Source: Verrucomicrobiota bacterium (lineage in GTDB: Bacteria; Verrucomicrobiota; Verrucomicrobiia; Limisphaerales; UBA11358). From it: DNA of 64,000 nt. Shown in pieces: positions 11,228 to 63,378 of this stretch; position 1 is the stretch's first letter, and each line of letters opens with the position of its first letter. The position numbers were made by a program, and so were the translations under genes. The notes under the pieces are model-generated. The model was given only the letters and a program-made list of their open reading frames with translations, was not told where the DNA came from and did no database searches. The stretch is from assembly GCA_049523555.1 (NCBI GenBank), contig JBEKMU010000013.1, positions 2,707 through 66,706 on the forward strand, in the 5' to 3' direction.

Positions 11228-12787
11228 ATGAAACCCCAGGTCGAAATCTATGACACGACCCTGCGCGACGGTTCGCAGGGTGAAGGCATCAATTTCTCGG
11301 TCGCGGACAAGCTCCGCATCGCCGAGAAGCTCGACGCGTTCGGGGTGCATTACATCGAAGGCGGCTGGCCCGGCTCGAACCCCAAGGACATGGAATTTTT
11401 TGCGCAGGCCAGCCGGCACAAGTGGAAGAACGCCCAAATCGCCGCGTTCAGCATGACCCGCCGCAAGGGCGTCACCGTCGAGAAGGACGAGTTGATGCGG
11501 CAGATTCTCGATGCGAAAACACCGGTCGTCACCGTCGTCGGCAAAACGTGGCTGTTGCACGTCACCGAGGTGTTGCGCGCCAAGCCGGATGAAAACCTCG
11601 CGATGATCGGCGACACCATCCGCTTTTTGAAGGACCACGGCAAAACGGTCATCTACGACGCCGAGCACAGCTTCGACGGTTTCAAGGACGAACCGGAATA
11701 CGCGCTGGCCACATGGCAGGCCGCGGAGAAAGCGGGCGCGGAGTGCATCGCGTTGTGCGACACGAATGGCGGCTGTCTGCCGGAGGAAATCGCGCGCATC
11801 ACGGCGTTTGCGAAAAGCAAACTCACGGCCCGCCTCGGCATCCACACACACAACGATTGCGGTGTGGGTGTGGCCAATGCCCTCGCCGGCCTCGAAGCCG
11901 GTGCCACGCAGGTGCAGGGCACCATCAACGGCTACGGCGAACGCACGGGCAATTGCAATCTGACCAGCGTCATTCCGCTGATTCATTTCAAGTTGAAAAA
12001 AATCGGCGTGCCAGTGAAGTCATTACCCAAGCTCAAGGAGCTTTCCGAATTCGTGGATGAGATGGCCAACGTTCGGCACGATCCGCGCCAGCCGTGGGTG
12101 GGACAGACGGCTTTTGCGCACAAGGGCGGGATGCACGTGCACGCGATTGACCGCGTGGCGCGCAGCTACGAACACATTGACCCGGCCGCCGTTGGGAATT
12201 TCCGCCGCGTGCTCATCAGCGACATGTCGGGCCGCACGAACATTTTGATGAAGGGCGCGGAGCTCGGGTTCAAGCTCAAGCCGGAAATGCCGGAAGTGAA
12301 AACTATCACGCAGCGCGTCAAGGAACTGGAAAACCAAGGTTACGAGTTCGAGGCCGCCGAAGGTTCGCTCGCGCTGCTGATCAGCAAGACGCTCAAACAT
12401 CGCGACCCGCTGTTTCACGTGGACGCCTATCACGTTTCCATGCGGCGTGATGCCAGGGAGTCCGTCTGTGAAGCGACGGTCAAGGTCGGCGTCGGCACCC
12501 GGCAGGCGCAGACGGTGGCCGAGGGCGACGGCCCCGTGAACGCGCTCGACGGCGCATTGCGCTCGGCGCTGGTGAAGTTTTATCCGCAGCTTAAAAAGGT
12601 GACGCTCACGGATTACAAGGTGCGCATTCTTAACAGCGACACCGGCACCGCCGCCAAGACGCGCGTGCTCATCGAATCCAGCGACGGCCGGCGCGAATGG
12701 GGCACCGTCGGCGTGAGCGAGAACATCATCGAAGCCAGCCTCCAGGCGCTCGTGGACAGCATGGAATATGCGCTGTTAAAAAAATGA
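11228..12787 (+). CDS. cimA: Citramalate synthase / LeuA-related (isoleucine pathway)
   Basis: MKPQVEIYDTTLRDGSQGEGINFSVADKLRIAEKLDAFGVHYIEGGWPGSNPKDMEFF matches the citramalate synthase subfamily pattern. The ATG at 11228 lies inside ORF 11141..12787. Confidence 0.85.
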   Translation: MKPQVEIYDTTLRDGSQGEGINFSVADKLRIAEKLDAFGVHYIEGGWPGSNPKDMEFFAQASRHKWKNAQIAAFSMTRRKGVTVEKDELMRQILDAKTPVVTVVGKTWLLHVTEVLRAKPDENLAMIGDTIRFLKDHGKTVIYDAEHSFDGFKDEPEYALATWQAAEKAGAECIALCDTNGGCLPEEIARITAFAKSKLTARLGIHTHNDCGVGVANALAGLEAGATQVQGTINGYGERTGNCNLTSVIPLIHFKLKKIGVPVKSLPKLKELSEFVDEMANVRHDPRQPWVGQTAFAHKGGMHVHAIDRVARSYEHIDPAAVGNFRRVLISDMSGRTNILMKGAELGFKLKPEMPEVKTITQRVKELENQGYEFEAAEGSLALLISKTLKHRDPLFHVDAYHVSMRRDARESVCEATVKVGVGTRQAQTVAEGDGPVNALDGALRSALVKFYPQLKKVTLTDYKVRILNSDTGTAAKTRVLIESSDGRREWGTVGVSENIIEASLQALVDSMEYALLKK

Positions 12788-12792
12788 TTTTT

Positions 12793-12861
12793 CAACGCAA
12801 AGGCGCAAAGAAGCAAAGTCGCCAGGAGAAGAAAAATCTTTGCGTCTCTGCGTCTTGGCGT
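12793..12861. repeat. Imperfect inverted-repeat (hairpin) element in the cimA-valS gap
   Basis: CAACGCAAAGGCGCAAAGAAGCAAAG ... CTTTGCGTCTCTGCGTCTTGGCGT. The arms are reverse-complementary with a few mismatches. Confidence 0.7.
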
Positions 12862-12870
12862 CAAATTCCC

Positions 12871-15800
12871 ATGAGTGAAATTCCCAAGGCCTACGAACCG
12901 CAAGCAGTCGAAGACAAGTGGTACCAGTTCTGGCTCGACCAGAAGTGCTTCGTCGCCGATGCGCAGTCGAAGAAGCCTGCTTATTCCATTGTCATCCCGC
13001 CGCCGAATGTCACCGGCATGCTCACGATGGGCCACGTCCTCAACAACACCATCCAGGACATCCTCGCCCGCAAAGCGCGCATGGACGGCAAGGAGGTCCT
13101 CTGGCTGCCCGGCACCGATCACGCCGGCATTGCCACGCAGACGGTGGTGGAACGCACGTTAAAAAAGGCCGGTGAAATCAAACATCGTGACGATTTGGGC
13201 CGCGAAAAATTCCTCGAACGCGTCTGGCAATGGAAGGAAAAGCACGGCGGTATCATCATCCAGCAATTGAAGAAGCTCGGCGCGTCGTGCGACTGGACGC
13301 GTGAACGGTTCACCATGGACCCGGAATATTCGCGCTGTGTCCAGAAGGTATTTGTGGAGCTTTACAAAAAGGGCCTTATCTATCGCGGCAAGCGCATGGT
13401 GAACTGGGACCCTGCCGCCCGCACCGCGCTCTCCGACGAGGAAGTCGAAATGATCGAGGAAAAGGGGCACCTCTGGCACATCAAATATCCGCTGCTCGAC
13501 GACCAGGGCCAACCCAAGGCTGATGAATTCGTGGTCGTCGCCACGACCCGCCCGGAAACGATGCTCGGCGACGAAGCGGTGGCAGTGAATCCGTCCGACC
13601 CGCGTTACACGAAGCTGGTCGGGCGGAAGGTGCTGTTGCCGCTCCAGAACAAGCCCATCCCGGTCATTGCTGACGCACTGGTGGACCCGAAGTTCGGTAC
13701 CGGTTGCGTGAAGGTGACGCCCGCACACGATCCGGCCGACTACGAGATAGCGCTACGGCACAACCTGCCGATCACCGTCGTCATCGGCCTCGACGGCCAC
13801 ATGACGCCGGCCGCCGGCAAGGAGTTTGAGGGCTTGAACCGTTCGAAAGTGCGCCAGGCCGCAGTCGAGAAACTGACCGAGCAGGGCTTGTTGCTGAAGA
13901 CCGAGGATTACGTCCACAATGTCGGTTACAGCCAGCGCAGCCATGTGCCCATCGAACCGTATCTGAGCGAGCAATGGTTTTTGAAATATCCAAGCGTGGA
14001 AAAATCGCGGGCGTGCGTGGAGCAAGCCGACGTCGGAGGGGCGAGTTCCACGAGCCCCACTTCAAGTCAGGGCGTCGCAGAGCTCCGCCCTCCGAAAGAT
14101 GGGAAAATGCAGTTCCATCCGCAGCGCTGGGCGAAGGTCTATGACCACTGGATGGGCAACATCCAGGACTGGTGCATCAGCCGCCAGCTTTGGTGGGGAC
14201 ACCGGATTCCGGTGTGGACTCTGGCGTGGAATGACGAATGTGCCGGCGGTGCAATTGAAGAGGAAGAATTTTTGATGGGTATCAATGCATGGGTGAAGGA
14301 AGTCGGTTTAGTTGGCAAACTTGAAATTCACATCGCCCGTGATTTGCCCTATACAGCTCGCATTTTGACATTGGACTCGGAAGCGGATGCTCGTCTGGCA
14401 GAACTGGCTGAAGTCGCAAGCAAACATGATGAACAAGCTTCGTCTGAGTATGAAGCGCGCTTTACGACAGAAGCGAAGATTCTTTACACGATTGATACAC
14501 TCACCCAAGACCCCGATGTGCTCGATACGTGGTTCAGCTCCTGGCTCTGGCCGTTTGCGACGATGGGCTGGACGGGTGACAAATCCCAGGACTCCAACAA
14601 CCCAACACTCCGGGCCTTTTATCCGACCACCGACCTGGTCACCGGGCCGGACATCATTTTCTTCTGGGTCGCGCGCATGATTATGGCGGGCTACGAATTC
14701 ATGGGGGATTTGCCGTTCCGGAACGTCTATTTCACCGGCATCATCCGCGACAAGCAGGGCCGCAAGATGTCCAAGAGCCTCGGCAATTCGCCTGACCCGC
14801 TCGACCTCATCGCCAAGTTCGGCGCCGATGCGCTCCGGTTCGGCACCATGCGCAGCGCGCCGCTTGGTCAGGACATTTTGTTCGACGAACAAAACGTCGA
14901 GTTGGGCCGCAATTTCTGCAACAAGCTCTGGAACGCCTGCCGCTTCCGCCAGATGGTCGGCAGTGCCGACTTCCCAATTCAGGGGGAGATTAATCCAAAA
15001 CTATTAACGTCAGACGACAAATGGATTTTGCTCAAGCTCGATCAGGCGATTCGTGAAATGAACACCGCATTCGCCGAATACAAATTCAGCGACGCGACGG
15101 CGACGCTCTACCGCTTTTTCTGGAGCGAGTATTGCGATTGGTACGTCGAGGCGAGCAAAGCTGTGCTGTCGCACAGCGTTGAACCGTTAAAACGCGAAAC
15201 CGTTGAATCGGCCACCGGTTCAACGATTCAACCTTTCAACGATTCAACGGCTCGCAAAGCGAATACTCTGGCCGTGATTGATTTTGTTCTCTCGCATACG
15301 CTGCGGCTGTTTCATCCGTTTCTGCCGTTCATCACGGAGGAACTCTGGCATGGGATGGGTTATGCCGAGGACATGCCACAAGATCAGGGCGGCAAAACCA
15401 TCATGTTCGCGCCCTGGCCGAAGCCGCTCGGCGACGATTTCAAATCACACTACGACCTGACCGAACAGGACGAAAAACACATCGAAGCCCGCAACGAATT
15501 TGTCACGCAAGGCCGCAATCTGCGCCGCACGGCGAACATCGCCGCGAACAAGAAGGTCAAATTCATTCTCAAACCGGCGCGCGAATTGCCGGCTCACGAC
15601 CTCGAAGTGCTAAGGCTGTTGCTGAATGCCGAGGCGGTCGAGGTGAACACGAATTTTCAGCCGGCAAAAAACACGATGACGGTGCGCACCGCGTTGGGCG
15701 ATTTGTTTCTGCCGCTGGAAGGTTTGATTGACATCGAGGCGGAAAAAGCGCGGCTGAAAAAGGAGTTGGAAAAAATCGAGGCCGAGACCGCCAAAGTCGA

Positions 15801-15933
15801 ACAGAAGCTGGCCAACCCGAACTTCACGCAAAAGGTTCCAGCGCAAGTCTTGGAGGAACACAAGCAGCGTCTCGCCGAGTGGCATGGCAAACGCGACCAC
15901 GTGAAATCCGCACTGGCCGCCCTGCAAGGTTGA
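12871..15933 (+). CDS. valS: Valine--tRNA ligase
   Basis: MSEIPKAYEPQAVEDKWYQFW start, the class I HIGH-type motif PPPNVTGMLTMGHV and KMSKS (RKMSKSLGN). A C-terminal coiled coil is present. The ATG at 12871 lies inside ORF 12697..15933. Confidence 0.95.
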   Translation: MSEIPKAYEPQAVEDKWYQFWLDQKCFVADAQSKKPAYSIVIPPPNVTGMLTMGHVLNNTIQDILARKARMDGKEVLWLPGTDHAGIATQTVVERTLKKAGEIKHRDDLGREKFLERVWQWKEKHGGIIIQQLKKLGASCDWTRERFTMDPEYSRCVQKVFVELYKKGLIYRGKRMVNWDPAARTALSDEEVEMIEEKGHLWHIKYPLLDDQGQPKADEFVVVATTRPETMLGDEAVAVNPSDPRYTKLVGRKVLLPLQNKPIPVIADALVDPKFGTGCVKVTPAHDPADYEIALRHNLPITVVIGLDGHMTPAAGKEFEGLNRSKVRQAAVEKLTEQGLLLKTEDYVHNVGYSQRSHVPIEPYLSEQWFLKYPSVEKSRACVEQADVGGASSTSPTSSQGVAELRPPKDGKMQFHPQRWAKVYDHWMGNIQDWCISRQLWWGHRIPVWTLAWNDECAGGAIEEEEFLMGINAWVKEVGLVGKLEIHIARDLPYTARILTLDSEADARLAELAEVASKHDEQASSEYEARFTTEAKILYTIDTLTQDPDVLDTWFSSWLWPFATMGWTGDKSQDSNNPTLRAFYPTTDLVTGPDIIFFWVARMIMAGYEFMGDLPFRNVYFTGIIRDKQGRKMSKSLGNSPDPLDLIAKFGADALRFGTMRSAPLGQDILFDEQNVELGRNFCNKLWNACRFRQMVGSADFPIQGEINPKLLTSDDKWILLKLDQAIREMNTAFAEYKFSDATATLYRFFWSEYCDWYVEASKAVLSHSVEPLKRETVESATGSTIQPFNDSTARKANTLAVIDFVLSHTLRLFHPFLPFITEELWHGMGYAEDMPQDQGGKTIMFAPWPKPLGDDFKSHYDLTEQDEKHIEARNEFVTQGRNLRRTANIAANKKVKFILKPARELPAHDLEVLRLLLNAEAVEVNTNFQPAKNTMTVRTALGDLFLPLEGLIDIEAEKARLKKELEKIEAETAKVEQKLANPNFTQKVPAQVLEEHKQRLAEWHGKRDHVKSALAALQG

Positions 15934-17887: not shown

Positions 17888-18736
17888 ATGAAAGCCCTAT
17901 TATTGAATAAATCACTGGCCGTGGCCGTCAAAGCCGCGCGCGCCGCGGGGAAACTCATGCGCGACAACTGGCACGCGCCCAAGCGCGTCAACGCCACCGA
18001 TGCCCACGACATCAAGCTTGAACTCGATGTGCGCAGCCAGAAACTCATCGAAAAAAACCTGTGTGCCGCGTTTCCAAAAATTCCTTTGCTCGGCGAGGAA
18101 GGTTGCACGGGCGACATGAACGCCGAATATCGCTGGGTGGTGGACCCGATTGACGGCACGGTGAATTATTTCCTTGGCATTCCGCACGCTGCCGTATCTA
18201 TCGCTTTGCAGCGGTGGGGCGAGAGTCTCTCGAGCCCCGACTCAAAAACAAAAAAATCAGGGCTCGACAGAGTCTCGCCCCACCAAAATTTTGAAACAAT
18301 CCTCGGAGTAATCTATGGTCCGTTCACGGATGAACTCTGGACGGTGATTCGCGGCGGGCCGACGCGATTGAATGGGTGCGTCGTCCGTGTCAGCCGCCGC
18401 CAAAACCTGAAGGAGGCCGTCGTGGCCATGGGCTTTTCCAAGAGCAAACAAAACCTGGCAAAAAGCCTGCCGCACCTGAACCGGCTTTCCCGGCGCACGT
18501 TGAAAATGCGCATCATGGGTTCGGCAGCGCTCGAACTTGCCTACGTCGCCTCCGGCCGCCTCGACGCCTACATCGAGCGCACCATCAATTTGTGGGACAT
18601 CGCGGCGGGCGCATTGATGGTTGAATGTTCCGGCGGCGAATTTTACACCCGGCCCGCGCCGGGCGGGAAACTCCGGATGATCGCCAGCAACGGCCTGCTC
18701 CGCCGGAAACTTCAGCTTGGAAACTTGCTGAAGTGA
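17888..18736 (+). CDS. Inositol monophosphatase family protein (SuhB-like), with a repeat-derived internal insert
   Basis: Motifs LLGEEG and WVVDPIDGTVNYFLGIPHAAVSIAL, and a C-terminal WDIAAGALMV. Confidence 0.85.
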   Translation: MKALLLNKSLAVAVKAARAAGKLMRDNWHAPKRVNATDAHDIKLELDVRSQKLIEKNLCAAFPKIPLLGEEGCTGDMNAEYRWVVDPIDGTVNYFLGIPHAAVSIALQRWGESLSSPDSKTKKSGLDRVSPHQNFETILGVIYGPFTDELWTVIRGGPTRLNGCVVRVSRRQNLKEAVVAMGFSKSKQNLAKSLPHLNRLSRRTLKMRIMGSAALELAYVASGRLDAYIERTINLWDIAAGALMVECSGGEFYTRPAPGGKLRMIASNGLLRRKLQLGNLLK

Positions 18737-25352: not shown

Positions 25353-25450
25353 AATGGAGTAATGGAGTGTTGGGGCGATGGAGTATTGGGTTCACGCGCA
25401 AGCATGTCAGGCCTTTCCATCACTCCATCACTTCAATACTCCACCATCCC
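25353..25450. repeat. AATGGAGT-type inverted-repeat hairpin element
   Basis: Left arm AATGGAGTAATGGAGTGTTGGGGCGATGGAGTATTGGG. Right arm CATCACTCCATCACTTCAATACTCCACCATCCC. It belongs to the same family as 37952..38030. Confidence 0.8.
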
Positions 25451-33296: not shown

Positions 33297-34229
33297 ATGT
33301 CCTCAACCCTGAAATCATTGCGGGCTTTGTCCGACCCGACGCGGCTGCGCATCGTGGCGCTGCTGGAGCGGGATGAATTGTCCGTGCACGAGCTGCAGGA
33401 AATCACGCGGCTCGGCCAGTCACGCATTTCCACGCATCTCGGCCTGCTGCAGGATTCGGAACTGGTACAATCGCGGCGCGACGGCAAACGGACGTTCTAC
33501 AAGCTGAACCCGGCTGCGGATGGCGCCGCGCGCGAATTCATCCAACTGGCCATTCGCGGCGCGAAGGAACTGCCCGAGCACGCAGGCGACCAGATCAATC
33601 TCAAGCGCATCCTCGGCCGCCGGCGCGAACAAGCACAGGTCTATTTCAATCAGGTTGCCGGCCGGTTCGACCGCGTTTATGGTCCCGGCCGTTCGTGGCA
33701 GGCCTTTGGGCATCTGCTGTTGCGGATTTTGCCGCCGCTGGTCGTGGCCGACCTCGGCGCGGGCGAAGGCCTGTTGAGCGAACTGCTCGCGCGCCGCTGC
33801 AAAAAAGTCATCGCCGTGGACAACTCGGAAAAGATCGTCGCCTTCGGCGCGGCGAAGGCAAAAAAGAACGGGTTGAAAAATCTGGAGTTCCGCCTCGGCG
33901 ATTTGCAGAACCCACCCATTGAAGCCGGCAGCGTTGACCTGGTGATTTTGAGCCAAGCATTGCATCACGCCGAAGCCCCGTCCGCGGCAATTGCCGCCGC
34001 AGCCAAAATCCTTCGCCCGCACGGGCAAATCATCATCCTCGATTTGCTCAAGCACAATTTTGAGAAGGCGCACGGGCTTTACGGCGACCGTTGGCCGGGC
34101 TTTGCCGAGAGCGATTTGCAGCGCTGGCTGGAGGAGGCGGGTTTCAGGAAGATCGAAATCAGTGTCGTCGCCCGCGAGGAATCGCCGCCGCATTTTCAGA
34201 CCATTCTGGCGGGCGGGGAAAAAACGTAG
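33297..34229 (+). CDS. ArsR-family wHTH fused to a class I SAM-dependent methyltransferase-like domain (SahR-like regulator)
   Basis: LSDPTRLRIVALLERDELSVHELQEITRLGQSRISTHLGLLQDSELV (ArsR HTH). VVADLGAGEGLLSELLARRCKKVIAVDNS (SAM-binding motif I). The ATG at 33297 lies inside the TTG-started ORF 33270. Confidence 0.8.
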   Translation: MSSTLKSLRALSDPTRLRIVALLERDELSVHELQEITRLGQSRISTHLGLLQDSELVQSRRDGKRTFYKLNPAADGAAREFIQLAIRGAKELPEHAGDQINLKRILGRRREQAQVYFNQVAGRFDRVYGPGRSWQAFGHLLLRILPPLVVADLGAGEGLLSELLARRCKKVIAVDNSEKIVAFGAAKAKKNGLKNLEFRLGDLQNPPIEAGSVDLVILSQALHHAEAPSAAIAAAAKILRPHGQIIILDLLKHNFEKAHGLYGDRWPGFAESDLQRWLEEAGFRKIEISVVAREESPPHFQTILAGGEKT

Positions 34230-34292
34230 GACAGGCGTCGCGCCTGTCTCCATTTTCTCCTAACGTTGAGACAGGCTGGAAGCCTGTCCTAC
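34226..34292. repeat. 67-bp REPIN-like inverted doublet (GTAGGACAGGC...GCCTGTCCTAC)
   Basis: Arms GTAGGACAGGCGTCGCGCCTGTCTC and GAGACAGGCTGGAAGCCTGTCCTAC with a 17-nt spacer. It exactly fills the convergent gap between the regulator gene and leuS. The regulator's TAG stop lies inside the terminal GTAG. Confidence 0.85.
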
Positions 34293-34295
34293 ACT

Positions 34296-37136
34296 TTACG
34301 CCACGGCGATGTTCACCAGTTTTTTCGGCACGACGATGACTTTCCTGATCGTCTTGCCGGCCAGGAACGGCTTCACTTTTTCAGAGGCGCGAGCAGCGGC
34401 TTCGAGCGCGGCATTGTCAGCGTTGGCCGGGACTTTGATGACGTCGCGCAACTTGCCGTTCACCTGCACGGGAATTTCCAGTGTGTCCTCGACGAGCAAC
34501 GTTGCATCAAACTTTGGCCAGCAGGCGTAAGCCAGCGCGATTCGATGTTGGATGTTCGATGTTGGATGTTCGATGTTCAGCTTTTCCCACAACTCCTCCG
34601 CCAAGTGCGGCGCGAAAGGCTGGAGTAGAATCAAAAAATCGCGCAGCACCACAACCGGCTTTGTTTCCCAGGTGATGGCGTCGTTTACAAAGACCATCAG
34701 CGCCGAAATAGCCGTGTTGAAACGAAAGCCGTCCAAATCCGCCGTCACCTTTTTGATGCAGGCGTGCAACGTTTTAAGCTGCTCGCGCGCCGGTTCGACA
34801 TCTTTAATCGAGCCGCTGAGTTGGATTTTTTTGAGCAGTTCTGGGCCTTTCTGCGGCTGAATTGTTTCCGCCTGCTCGAATTCCGTTTCAGATTTTTCGT
34901 CCACGAACAGCCGCCAGACGCGGCCGAGGAAACGATAAACGCCTTCGACGCCCTTGGTGCTCCACGGCTTGACCATTTCAAGCGGGCCCATGAACATTTC
35001 GTAAAGACGCAACGCATCCGTGCCGAAATCTCTCAAAACATCATCGGGGTTCACCACGTTGCCGCGCGATTTGGACATTTTCTGGCCGTCCTCGCCGAGA
35101 ATCAGTCCTTGATTGACGAGCTTGAAGAACGGTTCGGGCGTCGAGACGTAGCCGAGGTCGAACAAGACCTTGTGCCAGAACCGTGCGTAAAGCAGATGTA
35201 ATACGGCGTGCTCGGTACCGCCGACATATAAATCCACGCCTGGAGTCGTGGACTTGGAGTCTGGGGTCTGGGATTTCGGTTCTTGGGAACCCATCCAATA
35301 TTGCTCCGCCTCCTTGCCGACGAACGATTGCGCATTCTTCGCGTCGAGGTAACGCAAATAATACCAGCAACTGCCGGCCCATTGCGGCATGGTGTTCGTC
35401 TCGCGCTGTGAGCCGTCGGGCAGATTCACCCAATCCTTCGCGCGCGCGAGCGGCGGCTGGCCATCAGGAGTGGGTTTGTAATCGTCAAGCGGCGGCGGCA
35501 AGACCGGCAGCGCGCTTTCGGGCAGGGCTTCGTGATACAAATTTCCAGCGGCATCCTTTTTCCAAATAATCGGGAAAGGCTCGCCCCAGTAACGTTGCCG
35601 GCTGAACAGCCAGTCGCGGAGTTTGTAATTGATGGTTTTCTTTCCAAGGCCTCTCGATTCGAGCCAAGCGGTGATTTTCTTTTTGGCTTCGGGCGTGGGC
35701 AGGCCGGTGATGGAAATCTCCGGCCCAGTGGAATTCACCGAAGTGCCGTCGTCCACGAATCCGCGCCAATCTGTCTTCTGGTCGGGTGGCTGAACGACTT
35801 GAATAATGGGCAGGTTGAATTTGGTGGCGAACTCGAAGTCGCGCGTGTCATGTGCCGGCACGGCCATGATGGCACCGGTCCCATAGCTGGCGAGAACGTA
35901 ATCAGCAATCCAAATGGGAATTTTTTCTCCGTTGACCGGGTTGATGACGTAAGCACCGGTGAAGACGCCAGTTTTCTCTTTGGCCAACTCGGTGCGTTCG
36001 AGGTCGGACTTCTTGGCAACGTCGGTTTTATACTTGGCAATCGCGGCGCGCAGTTCCGCAGTGGTAACTTGGTCAACGAGTTTGTGTTCCGGCGCGAGCA
36101 CCATGTAAGTTGCGCCGAAGAGCGTATCGGGTCGCGTAGTAAAAACTTCGATGAAGTTTGCAACGTCTGAAAACTGAACATTTGAAACTTGAAATCTCAC
36201 TGTGGCACCTTCGCTGCGACCAATCCAGTTCCGTTGCATTTCCTTGAGCGAATTGCTCCAGTCAATCGTGTCGAGGTCGGTGAGAAGTTTCTCGGCATAG
36301 GCGGTGATGCGGAGCATCCATTGGCGCATCGGTTTGCGGGTGACGGGAAATCCGCCGACTTCACTCTTGCCGTCCACAACTTCTTCGTTGGCCAGCACGG
36401 TGCCAAGTTGCTCGCACCACCAGACGGGTTGTTCGCTGACGTAGGCGAGGCGTTTTGAGTCGCGGTAGGCGCGGCGGCGGGCTTCGAGGTCTTGTTCGTC
36501 AGTAGGGCCGACCTGCCGGTCGGCCTGGACGCGCGGCAGCGCGTCCCTACCGGAAAGTTCCGCCGGATACTTCAGCGTCTCAATCGGCTCGGCCTTGTTC
36601 GTTTCCGGATTGAACCACGAGTTGTAAAGCTTCAGGAAAATCCACTGGGTCCACTTGAAATAATCGGGGTCGGTGGTGGCGAGTTCGCGCGACCAATCGT
36701 AACTGAAGCCAAGCGATTGAATCTGGCGCTTGAACGTGGCGATGTTGGCCTCGGTGGTCTGGCGGGGGTGCAGGCCGGTCTTGACGGCATATTGCTCGGC
36801 GGGCAGGCCGAAGGCGTCCCAGCCCATCGGATGCAGGACGTTGAAGCCGAGCGCGCGCCGGTAACGGGCGAGGATGTCCGTGGCGGTGTAACCTTCCGGA
36901 TGCCCAACGTGCAAACCCGCGCCGCTAGGATACGGAAACATGTCGAGGATGTAAAATTTGGGTGGCAACTGCGTGGCGGCCACCTTGCCGGAAAGACGAT
37001 GGCGTTTGGCGAAAGGGTGCCCGTCCGGGAGGACTTCGCCCGGATTAAACGCGCGAAAGGTCTGCTGTTCGTTCCAAAATTGCTGCCACTTAGGTTCAAT
37101 CAAATGAAACGGATATTGCCTGCGGCTGCTCGACAT
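34296..37136 (-). CDS. leuS: Leucine--tRNA ligase
   Basis: [23 protein letters not shown] (HIGH region), KMSKSRGN, and the CP1 editing domain. It is 946 aa, longer than usual because of several inserts. Confidence 0.97.
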
Positions 37137-37953: not shown

Positions 37954-38030
37954 GGAGTAATGGAGTAATGGAGTAATGGAGTGTTGGAAATCTTTTTCGG
38001 TGCCGCACCACTCCACCACTCCATCACTCC
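37952..38030. repeat. AATGGAGT-type inverted-repeat hairpin element (second copy)
   Basis: ATGGAGTAATGGAGTAATGGAGTAATGGAGTGTTGG ... CCACTCCACCACTCCATCACTCCG. It fills the birA-coaX gap. Confidence 0.8.
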
Positions 38031-38032
38031 GT

Positions 38033-39010
38033 TCATTTCTCAAGCGTTACATCCCCACCCGTGATGCGTTCCAAATGTCCATGTTCGGTCCGCAGCAACA
38101 GCGCGCCATCGTCATCCAGCGACTCGGCCCGACCGCTCACGCGCCGCCCGCCGATTTGAATCGTCACCGCGCGGCCAATTGTCGTGCAATGCGCTTCCCA
38201 CTCGTCAGCCACGTCTGCAAAAAAATCGCCACAGACGCGCGCGTAATCACAGTCGAGTTCGCGCAAAATGGCCGTTGCCAGCTCCGGACGGGAAATGGTT
38301 TTGCCGGCTTCAATTCTCAACGACGTCGCCGTCCTGCGCAATTCCGCCGGAAATTCATTCACGCTCAGGTTCACATCCACGCCGATGCCGAGGATGACGT
38401 GCTTGACGCAGTCCAATTCCGCGCTCATTTCCGTCAGAATGCCCGCGACTTTCCTGCCGCGAATCAAAATGTCGTTCGGCCATTTGATTTCCGGGTTCAG
38501 GCCGGTTTCGGATTGAATCGCACGCCGCAGAGCCATGGCGGAAGCAACGGTGAGTCGCGTTGTTTCCTGCGGGCGCAAATCCGGTCGCAGCAAAATGGAA
38601 AACCAAAGGCCTTTTCGCGCCGGCGACATCCACGCGCGACCGAGCCGGCCCCGGCCTTTCGTCTGCGATTCCGCAAAAACGACGGCGCCTTCCTTCACAC
38701 CGTCGCGCGCGAGCTTTTCAATCACGTCGTTGGTCGAAGTCGTCTGTTCAAACACGCGGATGTCGCGCCCGACGATTTTCGTTTTGCCGAGGCGCGCGAG
38801 CAAATCGTCCGCGTACAGCGCGTCGGGAACGCTCACGAGCCGGTAGCCGAAGTGCGGGCTGGCCTCGATGTCGTAGCCAAGCTGGCGCAACTCCTCGATG
38901 TGTCCCCAAATCGCCGCGCGCGTGACGCCCAGTTGCTCGGCGATTTCCGCACCCGACACCCCGTCGGTATTCGCGCGCAACGCGGTAAGAATTTTTGCGT
39001 CCGTCGTCAT
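38033..39010 (-). CDS. birA: Bifunctional biotin--[acetyl-CoA-carboxylase] ligase / biotin operon repressor
   Basis: N-terminal HTH (SGAEIAEQLGVTRAAIWGHIEELRQLGY) and the ligase motif ESQTKGRGRLGRAWMSP. Confidence 0.92.
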   Translation of the reverse strand: MTTDAKILTALRANTDGVSGAEIAEQLGVTRAAIWGHIEELRQLGYDIEASPHFGYRLVSVPDALYADDLLARLGKTKIVGRDIRVFEQTTSTNDVIEKLARDGVKEGAVVFAESQTKGRGRLGRAWMSPARKGLWFSILLRPDLRPQETTRLTVASAMALRRAIQSETGLNPEIKWPNDILIRGRKVAGILTEMSAELDCVKHVILGIGVDVNLSVNEFPAELRRTATSLRIEAGKTISRPELATAILRELDCDYARVCGDFFADVADEWEAHCTTIGRAVTIQIGGRRVSGRAESLDDDGALLLRTEHGHLERITGGDVTLEK

Positions 39011-46733: not shown

Positions 46734-47426
46734 TTAATTTCCGTATCGCAACATTCTTAATTGAGAATTAAGGTCTGCAAGTTCGTTGGCTATCCGCGCT
46801 GATTCAAGATTTGAAGCGCCTTGGTTAAGGCTTTGGTTGTAGGCTTGGCTTTCTTGGGCTGCTGCCATTCGTTCGGAAGCCAAAGCCGTCCGCTCTTGGG
46901 CTTCAAGCGTCCTGATTCTTATTTCCAAATCCAATATCTCTTTGCGTCTTTGGGCTTCCTTGACCGCTTGCTCGGCCTCTTCTTTAGCTTGTTGGGCTTT
47001 TAACGCTTTAAGGTTTTGCTCATCCACAATCCATTGACGGCTCTGGTTTACCTGTGCGTTGAATTTTTGTTTCCTGAATTCTTCGGCTTTTTGAGGGCTG
47101 TAACCATAGTGGTCGCGCCAATCATCTGGCAATTCTTCAAAAGAAATTTTAGTGATTGCCATGCCGCCCTCTTTTGGAGTGTAGCTCACAACAACTCCAT
47201 CAGGTTCTACTTTGGAAACCTGAATTTTCTCATAAACTTTTCCGCTGACGGTTGTCACGCAGTTGCTATCAAACGGCGGGTTTGGTCTGAAATCAATCGC
47301 GGCAGCGGCTTTCGCCTGAGTCTTGGGTTGGAGCGCATTGGTGGTGGGTAAGGTTTGATTGGTTTGCGCCTGTGTCTGCCCGAAAAACGCAACGCAAATG
47401 CTGAAAATTGCGAGGGCTGTTTTCAT
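46734..47426 (-). CDS. Secreted coiled-coil hypothetical protein
   Basis: Signal peptide MKTALAIFSICVAFFGQTQA, a small beta-rich N-domain and a long Q/E/A-rich helical C-terminal half. It lies in a visibly AT-richer patch. Confidence 0.6.
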   Translation of the reverse strand: MKTALAIFSICVAFFGQTQAQTNQTLPTTNALQPKTQAKAAAAIDFRPNPPFDSNCVTTVSGKVYEKIQVSKVEPDGVVVSYTPKEGGMAITKISFEELPDDWRDHYGYSPQKAEEFRKQKFNAQVNQSRQWIVDEQNLKALKAQQAKEEAEQAVKEAQRRKEILDLEIRIRTLEAQERTALASERMAAAQESQAYNQSLNQGASNLESARIANELADLNSQLRMLRYGN

Positions 47427-47847: not shown

Positions 47848-47897
47848 GTAGGGCCGCGCTGCTGCGCGGCCTCGGACGACCAGCAGGTCGTCCCTAC
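47848..47897. repeat. 50-bp GTAG...CTAC double-hairpin REP-like element
   Basis: GTAG-GGCCGCGCTGCTGCGCGGCC-TC-GGACGACCAGCAGGTCGTCC-CTAC. Its architecture matches the element inside leuS at 36502..36550. Confidence 0.85.
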
Positions 47898-47971: not shown

Positions 47972-48700
47972 ATGCTGGAGACGATTGAGAAGCTGCTGGT
48001 TCTACAAGACCGTGACCAAAAAATTCGTCGCGTGCAGGGGGAACTCGCCCACCTCGGTCCCGAACGCGAAGGTCTGCGCGCCAAGGCCGCCGCCACCCAG
48101 AACCAGCTCGAAACCCTCAAGTCGCGCGCCAAACAGATCGAGTCCGACCGCAAACGGCTCGAACTCGACGTCGAGACGAAGAAGCAGCAGATCGAACGAT
48201 ATGCCAACCAGCAGTTGCAGACGCGCAAGAACGAGGAATACCGCGCGCTGGCCCATGAGATTGATGCGTGCAAGGCCGACATCACAAAAATTGAGGACCA
48301 GGAAATCGAACTGATGGAGCAGGCGGAACAGGTGCAGAAGGAAAACACCCGCATTTCCCGCGAGGCCGCGGAAGCAAAAAAGTTGATGGAGGACCAGGTC
48401 GCGCAATTGGACGAGCGCGAGGCGAATTTGAAGAAGGAGCTGGCCGAGCAGCAGCAGGGCCGGGCGGAACTGGCGGCGGCGGTGGAGGAATCCGCGCGCG
48501 TGCGCTACGACCGGCTGGTCCGAAGCAAGGGCGAGAACGTCGTCGTGGGCGTGAACCACGGCGTGTGCGGCGGCTGCCACACGAAATTGCCGCCGCAAAT
48601 CCTAGTCTTTTGCATGGGCGACCAAGAAATCATCACCTGCACGAATTGCGGACGGATTCTTTACTACACGCGCGACATGGTGCTGGCGGCACCGGAGTAA
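47972..48700 (+). CDS. Coiled-coil protein with C-terminal C4 zinc ribbon (COG1579 / zf-RING_7 type)
   Basis: LLVLQDRDQKIRRVQGEL start, a long heptad-rich middle, and CGGCHTKLPPQ...CTNCGRILY. Confidence 0.8.
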   Translation: MLETIEKLLVLQDRDQKIRRVQGELAHLGPEREGLRAKAAATQNQLETLKSRAKQIESDRKRLELDVETKKQQIERYANQQLQTRKNEEYRALAHEIDACKADITKIEDQEIELMEQAEQVQKENTRISREAAEAKKLMEDQVAQLDEREANLKKELAEQQQGRAELAAAVEESARVRYDRLVRSKGENVVVGVNHGVCGGCHTKLPPQILVFCMGDQEIITCTNCGRILYYTRDMVLAAPE

Positions 48701-48734: not shown

Positions 48735-48807
48735 GTAGGGCGGGCAGTCCTCTGCCCGCCGCTCATCCTCACAACGATTGCGGCGCGCACGGAGTGACGC
48801 GCCCCAC
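48735..48807. repeat. Inverted doublet of REP-like hairpins between convergent genes
   Basis: GTAGGGCGGGCAGTCCTCTGCCCGCC is on the plus strand. GTGGGGCGCGTCACTCCGTGCGCGCC is on the minus strand. Confidence 0.75.
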
Positions 48808-48896
48808 CAATGCACTGATTTCCACCGGGAATTGCTATGTTTGGCCGGCGGGAATTGCCGGGGACCAGACACAGGGCGGGATTTTCCGAAAGTGAA

Positions 48897-57669: not shown

Positions 57670-57768
57670 TGATTGAATCGTTGAATCGTTGAACGGTTGA
57701 ACGGTTGAATCGGCGAAATTCGATGTCGCCGCGCCGGTTCAACGATTCGACGCTTTTAACGATTAAAC
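57670..57768. repeat. GTTGAATCG/GTTGAACGG-type inverted-repeat element in the nuoK-nuoJ spacer
   Basis: TTGAATCGTTGAATCGTTGAACGGTTGAACGGTTGAATCGGCG ... CGCCGGTTCAACGATTCGACGCTTTTAACGATTAAACG. Confidence 0.8.
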
Positions 57769-59915: not shown

Positions 59916-61664
59916 TTAGATTTTCACCGTCGCGCCCGTGTCACCGAGGCCCGCCCACGTCAAACCGTCGAACGCGGGCACGTCCTTCGCCATTTCGTTG
60001 AACAAACCCTCGATCGTCAGGAAACCGTCCTGGCCGGTGACGTTGTAAACCAAATCGTGCAAAAACTCCCACTCGGGCCGCGCGTCGCCGGGCGCCTCGA
60101 CCGCCTTCATGAATTTCTGAACGCGGCCTTTCGTGTTTGTGAACGTGCCGCGTTTCTCGACGTGCGCGCAGCCGGGCAAAAGGTAATGCGCCAGCTTCGT
60201 CGTTTCGTTCGGCAAAATGTCGCTAACGATGAGCGTGTCCAGTTTGCCGAGCAATTCGACGTCAATGCCGTTCTTGGTCACGTCCTCGCCGAAAACAATG
60301 AGTGTTTTGATTTTGCCGGCCCGGATGAATTCGGCGATCGGCCGCATTTTGATGCCCACGCTCGCCTGGCAAATGCCGATGAGCCGGGCACCGGTCTTGT
60401 TCGGATTGCGGTCGGCGTTCAGCAACAGCTTGTCGCCTTCGCCGAAACGTCCGACGGAATCGGTCATTGCCCCGAACTTGTCAGCCAGTTTTTTAAGCAG
60501 CCACAATTCCTCGTTCGTCTGCCGGGCCGAACCGATGATGGCGACCGAACCGTGCGCGGCCCGCTTAAGCTTCTCCGCGATTTCCGACAGTGCGGCAGTC
60601 CACGTTGTCTTTTGTAGGACAGGCATCTTGCCTGTCTCTGACTTTTCTTTAGATGGAGACAGGCTGGAAGCTTGTCCTACATTACGAATCAAGACGTCCT
60701 TCAAGCGATCTTCCCGACCGATCCACTTGTAGTTCAAGCGACCGTAATCACACATCCATGGACCGTTGACGGCGTCGTTCTCCCGGGGCGTGTAGCGGTA
60801 AACTTTTTCTTCGCGCGAGCCGATGATGATGTTGCAGCCGGTCGCGCAACTCGTGCAGATGCTCTTGGTTTCCTTGAGGAACCACACGCGCATTTGGAAA
60901 CGGAAATCCTTCGACGTGAGCGCGCCGACGGGACAAATATCCACAGTGTTCAGTGTGTAGTTGTTGTCGAATACCTTGCCCGGATAGGCGGTGAGCGTGC
61001 TGTAGCTGCCGCGATTGACGATGCCGAGCGCGTCGTCGCCCGCAATGTCCTTGGTGAACCGGATGCAGCGTGTGCAAAGGATGCAACGTTCGTCGTCGAG
61101 CACGATGCGCGGCCCGAGGTCAACCGTCTTGGGCTTGTGCACCTTCGGTTCCACAAAGCGGCTCGCGCTCTGGCCGTAATCCACCGAATATTCCTGCAGT
61201 TTGCATTCGCCCGCCTGGTCGCAAATCGGGCAATCGAGCGGATGGTTGATGAGCAGGAATTCCAGCACGCCCTCGCGCATTTGTTTCACGCCGGGTGTGT
61301 TCGTGTAAATTTCCATGCCGGGCGAAATCGGCGTGGCGCAGGCGATGGCTGGACGCGGCGATTTCATGATTTTCGGCGTGCCGTCGGGATTCAAAATCGG
61401 TTTGCGGTCCGGACCGAGCGCCGGTGTGCCGTACTCCACGAGGCACATGCGGCAATTGCCCGCTACGGGCAACTTCGAATGATAGCAATAATGCGGCACA
61501 TCCACCCTAGCCAGCTCGCACGCCTGAATCATCGTGGTGGGCGTCAACTTGCCGGACCAGTCCGCCGTGAGGCGCGGCACCTCGATTTCGCGCCCGTCCA
61601 CCTTCACCTTGATCTTTCCGACTGGTGGCGCGGGCTTCGTTTGCGTTGTGGCTGCGGTTGACAT
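59916..61664 (-). CDS. nuoG: NADH-quinone oxidoreductase subunit G (short form) carrying a repeat-derived in-frame insert
   Basis: The N-terminal 2Fe-2S/4Fe-4S motifs are CYHSKLPVAGNCRMCLV, HPLDCPICDQAGECKLQ and CILCTRCIRF. A molybdopterin-like domain follows. Confidence 0.93.
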   Translation of the reverse strand: MSTAATTQTKPAPPVGKIKVKVDGREIEVPRLTADWSGKLTPTTMIQACELARVDVPHYCYHSKLPVAGNCRMCLVEYGTPALGPDRKPILNPDGTPKIMKSPRPAIACATPISPGMEIYTNTPGVKQMREGVLEFLLINHPLDCPICDQAGECKLQEYSVDYGQSASRFVEPKVHKPKTVDLGPRIVLDDERCILCTRCIRFTKDIAGDDALGIVNRGSYSTLTAYPGKVFDNNYTLNTVDICPVGALTSKDFRFQMRVWFLKETKSICTSCATGCNIIIGSREEKVYRYTPRENDAVNGPWMCDYGRLNYKWIGREDRLKDVLIRNVGQASSLSPSKEKSETGKMPVLQKTTWTAALSEIAEKLKRAAHGSVAIIGSARQTNEELWLLKKLADKFGAMTDSVGRFGEGDKLLLNADRNPNKTGARLIGICQASVGIKMRPIAEFIRAGKIKTLIVFGEDVTKNGIDVELLGKLDTLIVSDILPNETTKLAHYLLPGCAHVEKRGTFTNTKGRVQKFMKAVEAPGDARPEWEFLHDLVYNVTGQDGFLTIEGLFNEMAKDVPAFDGLTWAGLGDTGATVKI

Positions 61665-63110: not shown

Positions 63111-63251
63111 CGCGTGATGCGTAATGCGTGATGCGTGAAAAAGTCGGGCAGGCGTCTCGCCTGCTCGCGCCGAGCGAAGCAAGGCAGGGAGATAGAAATG
63201 CCAAATGCTCGCGCTGATGCGCTCGCCGGGCAGGCGAGACGCCTGCCCTAC
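63111..63251. repeat. GTGATGCGT tandem plus 109-bp REPIN-like inverted doublet in the nuoF-nuoE spacer
   Basis: CGCGTGATGCGTAATGCGTGATGCGTGA. Then GTCGGGCAGGCGTCTCGCCTGC (63143..63164) and GGGCAGGCGAGACGCCTGCCCTAC (63228..63251). The arms are near-perfect reverse complements. Confidence 0.85.
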
Positions 63252-63304: not shown

Positions 63305-63378
63305 TGCCCGATGGTGTAACGGTAGCACAGCAGACTCTGGATCTGTTTGTCATGGTTCAAATCCATGTCGGGCAGCCA
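63305..63378 (+). tRNA. tRNA-Gln (anticodon CTG), CCA-encoded
   Basis: I folded the cloverleaf by hand. Acceptor TGCCCGA/TCGGGCA has 7 perfect pairs. D arm is GTG-TAACGGTAG-CAC. Anticodon stem is GCAGA/TCTGT with loop CTCTGGA. Variable loop is 4 nt. T arm is CATGG-TTCAAAT-CCATG. Discriminator G is followed by CCA. U1-A72 and G73 fit Gln identity. Confidence 0.9.

Follow-up and report, generated by a model that had tools for sequence, protein, structure and literature searches.

In a 64-kb window (the whole stretch of Verrucomicrobiota DNA analyzed here, 64,000 nucleotides), the leucyl-tRNA synthetase gene leuS was found to carry, in frame and in the middle of a lineage-specific loop of its protein (LeuRS), a short element of the repetitive extragenic palindromic (REP) type tagged with GTAG. 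Two such REPs, joined tail to tail, make up the element; it is dispersed through related metagenomic DNA with covarying stems, and it occupies a site that is empty in some orthologs and filled with other palindromes in others. We consider it probable that it is a miniature mobile element of the kind represented by REP doublets forming hairpins (REPINs) and bacterial interspersed mosaic elements (BIMEs), carried by leuS as a translated passenger. The host has been described as a soil Verrucomicrobium; its LeuRS is identical to a database entry from a Verrucomicrobiota metagenome-assembled genome (MAG), and the nearest relatives of the protein are annotated as Limisphaerales.

Structure of the element and dispersal of its family

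The core of the element comprises 49 nt that form two hairpins, each with an 8-bp stem and a 4-nt loop, bounded by GTAG and CTAC (Table 1). Each half consists of GTAG and a 20-nt palindrome, with the GTAG heads facing outward and the tails 1 nt apart, and each has the stem (5-13 bp), the loop (2-20 nt) and the GTAG at one end by which GTAG-REPs are defined (PMC3733652). The dimer is a heterodimer, as the inner stems of its halves differ (CGACC and CGCGC). It is predicted to fold into a three-way junction containing two separate hairpins, rather than into one long hairpin, and the fold is strong both as RNA (-40.5 kcal/mol, z = -4.5) and as DNA (z = -5.1). The pattern GTAGG-N30-50-CCTAC occurs twice in the window against an expectation of 0.06, a count of two or more being reached in 0 of 100 shuffles. 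An earlier note on this DNA had described a GTAG...CTAC double hairpin inside leuS; its sequence and coordinates were reproduced, apart from a spacer given as TG that is in fact a single T, making the core 49 nt long. Rfam yielded no family match at the element, and the unit at 36501-36551, which carries a T in place of the family's 3' C, scores 72 bits against our covariance model R1.

The second copy in the window (47848-47897) has the same architecture, as the earlier note had proposed, with a 50-nt core and a spacer of TC. Matching up the CGCGC- and CGACC-type hairpins shows that it runs opposite to the leuS copy, with compensatory stem changes. It lies between divergent genes at 46734-47426 (-) and 47972-48700 (+), and a 192-residue open reading frame (ORF) that overlaps it has no Pfam match. 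Run unfiltered on the 64-kb window, the covariance model returned no strong copy beyond these two.

Metagenome contigs were scanned using a pattern in which the tags were kept constant, along with just four of the eight pairs of each stem. This architecture search matched at least 120 contigs, and leuS holds only three of the copies among the matches listed. These matches include 56 copies of the leuS type (subfamily A) and 19 of the 47848 type (subfamily B), and several of the remaining copies carry quite different stems. In subfamily A, a G precedes the core in 55 of 56 copies and a C follows it in 55 of 56, so the unit of this subfamily is 51 nt, or 17 codons; the spacer base varies between copies and may be A, T, G or C. 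Cores of 49 nt nearly identical to that in leuS stand in at least 50 other contexts, including 13 unrelated genes and intergenic DNA. No match to the architecture was found among 2.9 million viral contigs.

Covariation was assessed at the eight stem pairs left unfixed by the search pattern, where 98.7% of cells pair, a level reached in 0 of 500 shuffles and compared with 31-45% in slid controls. Each of these pairs shows three to five pair types, and 324 double changes are spread over all eight. The halves built of GTAG and a 20-nt palindrome, the dispersal and the stem covariation uphold the earlier assignment of the element to the REP type. Target-site duplications of 2-5 bp were not found above control in 122 copies, which argues against a miniature inverted-repeat transposable element (MITE) of the DDE type and fits a Y1/HUH mechanism.

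Residence in leuS and in other genes

The leuS ORF runs uninterrupted through the element and retains both its HIGH-type and its KMSKS motif, in agreement with the in-frame reading of the earlier note; the coding strand translates the element into 17 residues. No LeuRS in the PDB has a counterpart of residues 174-227; in all of them the blocks ...LYKK and GLxY... that border this segment adjoin directly, and on this ground the element is placed in a lineage-specific loop, the expanded loop that had been claimed earlier. In the general layout of LeuRS, the insertion point would fall immediately ahead of the ZN-1 module, at the catalytic domain surface. An AlphaFold2 model of LeuRS based on 42 close homologs was too poor for placing the loop (mean predicted local distance difference test score 41.9, predicted template modeling score 0.24).

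Residence within genes is common in subfamily A, 24 of 54 copies of which lie in frames extending uninterrupted for 100 codons or more to either side. In 13 of 13 tested host ORFs other than leuS, Pfam domains of unrelated families were recognized on both sides of or around the element. These hosts encode two aminotransferases, a DUF7133/cytochrome c protein, a PMT/TPR glycosyltransferase, PurD, a DUF255 thioredoxin, a DEAD helicase, a Ser/Thr kinase, HypF, an MbnP/di-haem peroxidase, LigA, dihydrolipoyl dehydrogenase (Lpd) and a radical-SAM enzyme. The element is found in genes in both orientations, giving either of two 17-residue peptides, and all 16 genic copies (these 13 and three in leuS) use the GGT-AGG phase, although the GTA-GGG phase is also free of stops.

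Subfamily B, with its 50-nt core, is mostly located outside long ORFs; it was nevertheless encountered in frame in prolyl-tRNA synthetase (on two contigs), in an Fe-S/NuoB-like gene and in a C39 peptidase. A rule by which only the 51-nt subfamily would be genic was rejected on account of these copies. They also mean that the junctions are not uniform, and that the exact inserted length varies with the junction.

Empty and filled loops among orthologs

Eighty leuS loci from GTDB species representatives were compared. Among them, many relatives at 56-75% identity have a LeuRS loop of 33 residues that contains no palindrome and lacks the residues of the element. Within a set of 120 close orthologs (75-84% identity), six have a loop without insert, 22 share the peptide class of the element (class 1), and 66 fall into six other recurrent classes: GQASSLS...DRQDACPT, GRASSRA...SVASPHQ, RAAGILPA...QDAGST, ASGLRPDSSAHSADTT, SAGVPPANPAGTAGL and GRVTPCAP...RRAEDCPPY. 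The alignment of orthologs had been set beforehand, in the earlier note, as the comparison able to refute its claim; the outcome was that repeat-free relatives, both those with the 33-residue loop and the six close orthologs, are without these residues. The DNA encoding these other classes is palindromic and rich in GC, with folding energies of about -38 to -89 kcal/mol; most of them have GTAG-like ends, and several of their families also occur as separate elements in the window (34226-34292, 60614-60680, 48735-48809 and 18213-18284). One LeuRS loop is occupied across orthologs by at least eight families, at least seven of them besides that of the leuS element.

A neighbor-joining tree of LeuRS is star-like: the mutual distance of class-1 proteins is 0.1213, compared with 0.1214 to the rest, and only 8 of the 22 have another class-1 protein as nearest neighbor. 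The tree gives weak evidence for repeated gain, replacement or recombination, and its star-like shape makes a single origin and repeated gains inseparable. Shared residues at the 3' junction, such as NDAE, suggest that some of the class-1 LeuRS may descend from one ancestor.

A comparable site exists in a beta-turn of Lpd, where empty alleles read ELSNGKKLTAK (orthologs P0121-P0240; L166:590-2215). Most orthologs hold the 17-codon element at this turn in the opposite orientation, and others hold at least five other repeat-derived peptides.

Conservation within leuS was compared between the window and two further copies (L104 and L196). The 51 nt of the element are 94-96% identical among them, and third-codon positions of the upstream flank 72-78% identical (Fisher p 0.0002-0.006 versus the element), while the codons directly 3' of the element vary in sequence and number (DEQD, DAA, KEAE). 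A decayed leuS copy in L065 is 82-86% identical and has a compensatory change in its second stem. Among LeuRS orthologs, Asp3 co-occurs with Val8 and Ala3 with Gly8, combinations that preserve the pairing of the first hairpin. In L195, leuS is recognizable up to the element (1491-1539) and unrelated sequence follows directly, probably through an assembly mis-join.

Three more loops of LeuRS vary in length, at residues 319-328, 615-632 and 854-867 (36153-36182, 35241-35294 and 34536-34577). Among orthologs they contain discrete repeat-like peptide classes, for example IADCGLRIADSEK, VGSSRCDDRTAQRAVPT, NPSTLNPQPSTKST and one of 12 residues that resembles translated heptanucleotide tandem repeats, and ASGLRPD..SAHS..DTT was found in two different loops in different orthologs. 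Some orthologs (P0006, P0015, P0055, P0061, P0076 and others) have an 87-residue insert with Pfam PF05198 (IF3 N-terminal domain) at a site corresponding to residues 358-364 of the query, and others have an 80-residue insert at residues 682-685.

Search for a transposase

The 64-kb window contains no gene for a REP-associated tyrosine transposase (RAYT), and three ORFs in related DNA match NCBIfam NF047646, the model for this enzyme (Table 1). Directly adjoining the RAYT gene of L139 is a tail-to-tail dimer built, like the leuS element, to the GTAGGG...CCCTAC design, and the gene's four homologs (L201-L204:1501-2227) are each bracketed by GTAGGGGCACGC-CATG-GCGTGCCCCTAC units. In 4 of 4 examined loci, members of this sister family, GGGGCACGC-CATG, directly adjoin the RAYT gene on either side, which is the classic REPtron arrangement. 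The RAYT genes of L139 and L201-L204 additionally have one to three cognate REP copies (GTAGGGGCACGCCATGGCGTGCCCCTAC) within their own coding sequence and on both flanks. As candidates for the cognate enzyme of subfamilies A and B, the L139 homologs were rejected, all of them being flanked by their own family. In 2.2 Mb of related DNA, a scan for lone A or B units bracketing an ORF returned none, and tblastn searches with an Escherichia coli RAYT-like probe and then with the three confirmed RAYTs returned no further RAYT genes. By analogy with elements of its kind, the leuS subfamily would be mobilized by a RAYT.

Origin and persistence of the element

We propose that the element is copied or moved in the form of single-stranded hairpin DNA by a RAYT acting in trans, an enzyme of the HUH/Y1 class, which leaves no target duplication; the candidate substrate would be single-stranded GGTAGGGACGCGCTGCCGCGCGTCC. 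One copy would have entered a LeuRS surface loop that had already expanded in the lineage, and would have survived there by virtue of being exactly 17 codons long, stop-free in the frame used, and translated into a hydrophilic peptide rich in Gly, Arg, Asp and Pro that the loop tolerates. Under this proposal the element would be transcribed and translated as a presumably neutral passenger and not as a functional module. Because other palindrome families fill the same loop in related genomes, the loop may be regarded as a permissive site that has been hit repeatedly or has had its occupant replaced.

Several observations weigh against this proposal. The family has only two copies within the window, whereas GTAG REPs number tens to thousands of units per genome (PMC3733652). 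In 2.2 Mb of related DNA no RAYT is bracketed by subfamily A or B units, and the RAYT of L120 is bracketed by a different GTAG family, with a subfamily B element 530 nt away. Filled loops cannot be derived, in LeuRS or in Lpd, by adding exactly 17 residues to the empty form; insertions are imprecise or else layered. The conservation pattern within leuS, finally, is unlike the simple neutral decay of an old insertion, and the high identity may reflect a recent re-insertion, conversion by copies elsewhere or selection acting on the hairpins.

A reading that we advance tentatively, as it is more doubtful than the passenger proposal, is that the 51-nt subfamily is a REP dimer adapted to life inside genes, with protein loops as safe havens in which families are exchanged. 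It is suggested by the length of 17 codons, by a register that is stop-free in both orientations, by the use of one of two open phases in 16 of 16 copies, by the presence of nearly half of the copies in ORFs, and by the 94-96% identity in leuS while neighboring positions drift. If it were true, LeuRS residues 174-227 and the Lpd beta-turn would be such havens, and RAYT action at GTAG would swap the resident REPs, amounting to cassette exchange within essential proteins.

We regard it as unlikely that the element has been co-opted, that is, that its mRNA hairpins or its 17-residue peptide are kept for ribosome pausing in aid of co-translational folding, for mRNA protection or for a protein contact. 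The strong fold would suit such a role, as would the co-occurrence of residues 3 and 8 that keeps the first hairpin paired and the conservation of the element above both neighboring third-codon positions and the adjoining loop codons. Recent re-insertion or conversion, however, explains the high identity equally well, the same unit resides in either orientation in unrelated enzymes, and the six close orthologs without insert and the at least 66 with unrelated palindromes indicate that LeuRS needs neither the peptide nor the hairpin.

Less likely again is a MITE bounded by 7-bp terminal inverted repeats (GGTAGGG/CCCTACC) and mobilized by the DDE transposase of an unseen insertion sequence. Perfect terminal repeats and a small size speak for it, but the termini coincide with the GTAG tags of two REP units that each fold on themselves and whose internal stems covary, sister elements abut RAYT genes, and the expected duplications of 2-5 bp do not exceed control. 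That the element is not mobile DNA at all, having arisen locally as palindromic coding sequence in a loop that is length-variable anyway, or as an artefact of assemblers, which can mis-join at the point where L195 switches from leuS to unrelated DNA, is very improbable in view of the near-identical cores in other contexts, the intact leuS ORF, and the independent assembly of the same leuS insert in L104, in L196 and in many protein entries.

Comparison with known systems

Literature searches turned up nothing closer to the leuS case than the survey of GTAG REPs by Di Nocera, De Gregorio and Rocco (2013, PMC3733652), in which the verrucomicrobium Opitutus terrae has the largest number of intragenic copies. 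Over half of the intragenic inserts overall are dimers or grouped repeats, the tight dimers of O. terrae with 1-2 bp spacers encode about 15-16 residues, and RAYT cleavage is placed at GTAG (PMC3733652). The O. terrae families GTAG-17 to -20 resemble the leuS element in phylum, in the combination of GTAG with a short palindrome and in forming dimers spaced by 1-2 bp, and they stand in frame at about 70 sites, in genes with a wide range of functions; in other species such REPs also occur in tRNA synthetase genes, and different REPs occupy about the same recB site in two Xanthomonas species (PMC3733652). By contrast, the host of the window belongs to a different order (a Limisphaerales-like MAG), the O. 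terrae peptides are of the VAGVADPGPGSASPA or GTGVPPV types, from which the leuS peptide differs, and leuS is not in the host gene list of PMC3733652. The phenomenon is thus already known in the phylum, and what is new here is the family and the host gene. The presence of at least eight families in one loop goes beyond the single recB remark of PMC3733652, as does the genic share of 24 of 54, and together with the use of a single phase and with conservation above neutral sites these features extend the precedent somewhat.

REPINs mobilized by RAYTs and BIMEs, known from Pseudomonas and E. coli (Bertels and Rainey 2011, PMC3116915; Nunvar et al. 2010, PMC2817692), are likewise mobile units of two inverted REPs with a GTAG tag and without target duplications, and their cognate REPs flank RAYT genes, as the sister family does here. 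The leuS element differs in that its halves have different stems and form two hairpins closed by GTAGGG/CCCTAC in place of one long hairpin, in its spacer of 1-2 nt where REPINs have tens of nucleotides, and in the many genic copies of its family; moreover, none of the RAYTs found here is bracketed by subfamily A or B. The Rickettsia palindromic elements (RPEs) that Ogata et al. described in 2000 are said to be selfish sequences residing in frame in many unrelated and often essential genes, where their translation yields extra surface loops. The leuS element shares with them the character of a selfish palindromic repeat in frame in unrelated genes, but RPE-1 is about 100-150 bp long, AT-rich and devoid of a GTAG tag, whereas the leuS element is GC-rich and 49-51 nt long. 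RPEs further differ in their alphaproteobacterial hosts and unrelated sequence, and RPE-4 and RPE-6 are tagged with CGTC (PMC3733652), which the leuS element lacks; with its GTAG tag, GC-rich sequence and lack of an Rfam match, it does not belong to RPE-1 to -8.

For annotation, these comparisons imply that many odd low-complexity loops of Verrucomicrobiota proteins may be translated mobile DNA rather than lineage-specific function; in the window such inserts lie in leuS, valS, nuoG and an inositol monophosphatase family gene. The repeats can also break or mis-join metagenome assemblies, as in L195. Empty, filled and differently filled alleles map where essential enzymes accept 15-25 extra residues, and the alleles of such loops could reveal replacement between REP families at resident sites, and with it the spread of REPINs and RAYTs.

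Other repeats in the window

Table 1. Features of the leuS element, related copies, transposase genes and other repeats (window coordinates unless preceded by a locus name).
Feature	Position	Strand	Description
leuS, host gene	34296-37136	-	946 residues; only long ORF there; HVGH (HIGH-type) and KMSKS motifs
Lineage-specific loop	36456-36617	-	LeuRS residues 174-227; element in its middle; insertion hot spot
REP-type element core	36502-36550		+ strand reads GTAG GGCCGACC TGCC GGTCGGCC T GGACGCGC GGCA GCGCGTCC CTAC
Full 51-nt (17-codon) unit	36501-36551	-	As read in leuS: GGTAGGGACGCGCTGCCGCGCGTCCAGGCCGACCGGCAGGTCGGCCCTACT; LeuRS residues 196-212
REP unit 1	36502-36525	+	GTAG tag and palindrome GGCCGACC-TGCC-GGTCGGCC; head on + strand
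Spacer between unit tails	36526-36526		1 nt, T
REP unit 2	36527-36550	-	GTAG tag and palindrome GGACGCGC-TGCC-GCGCGTCC; head on - strand
Second copy (subfamily B)	47848-47897		50-nt core, 2-nt spacer TC; intergenic
RAYT	L018:5605-6423		80.7 bits (cut-off 80); also Pfam Y1_Tnp; directly downstream of its leuS
RAYT	L120:4064-4645		NF047646 match
RAYT	L139:239-1036		NF047646 match
Double hairpin	34226-34292		67 nt, GTAGGACAGGC...GCCTGTCCTAC; 4 nt past leuS stop, between convergent genes
nuoG insert	60613-60681		69 nt, GTAGGACAGGC family, in frame in nuoG (59916-61664, -), residues 328-351 (NVGQASSLSPSKEKSETGKMPVLQ)
valS insert	14033-14095		Palindromic, GGAGGGGCGAG...CTCCGCCCTCC, in frame in valS (12697-15933, +), residues 446-467 (VGGASSTSPTSSQGVAELRPPK)
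Inositol monophosphatase family gene insert	18213-18284		Long hairpin, GGTGGGGCGAG...CTCGCCCCACC, in frame in gene 17888-18736, residues 109-133
GTAG-type doublet	48735-48809		Outside confirmed genes
GTAG-type doublet	63145-63251		Outside confirmed genes; 107-nt hairpin, about 50 nt from tRNA gene 63305-63375
Short repeats	25355-25450, 37967-38033, 15181-15253, 57676-57755		Intergenic, tandem/inverted, AT-richer; TGGAGTAATGGAGTG and CCGTTGAATCG types

The double hairpin just past leuS could act as a two-way terminator. Its family is also found in frame in nuoG of the window, where the insert separates the Fe-S domain from the molybdopterin domain, and other genomes have it in their LeuRS loop as class GQASSLS...DRQDACPT. 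The valS insert divides the Pfam match of its protein into two stretches. The long hairpin of the inositol monophosphatase family gene belongs to the family seen as class GRASSRA...SVASPHQ in the LeuRS loop of L002, L005 and L060, and the doublet at 48735-48809 matches the LeuRS class GRVTPCAP...RRAEDCPPY of other genomes. A translated form of the CCGTTGAATCG type of the short intergenic repeats seems to be present in the LeuRS loops of P0051 and P0079 (NRCTV...STVQQFN).

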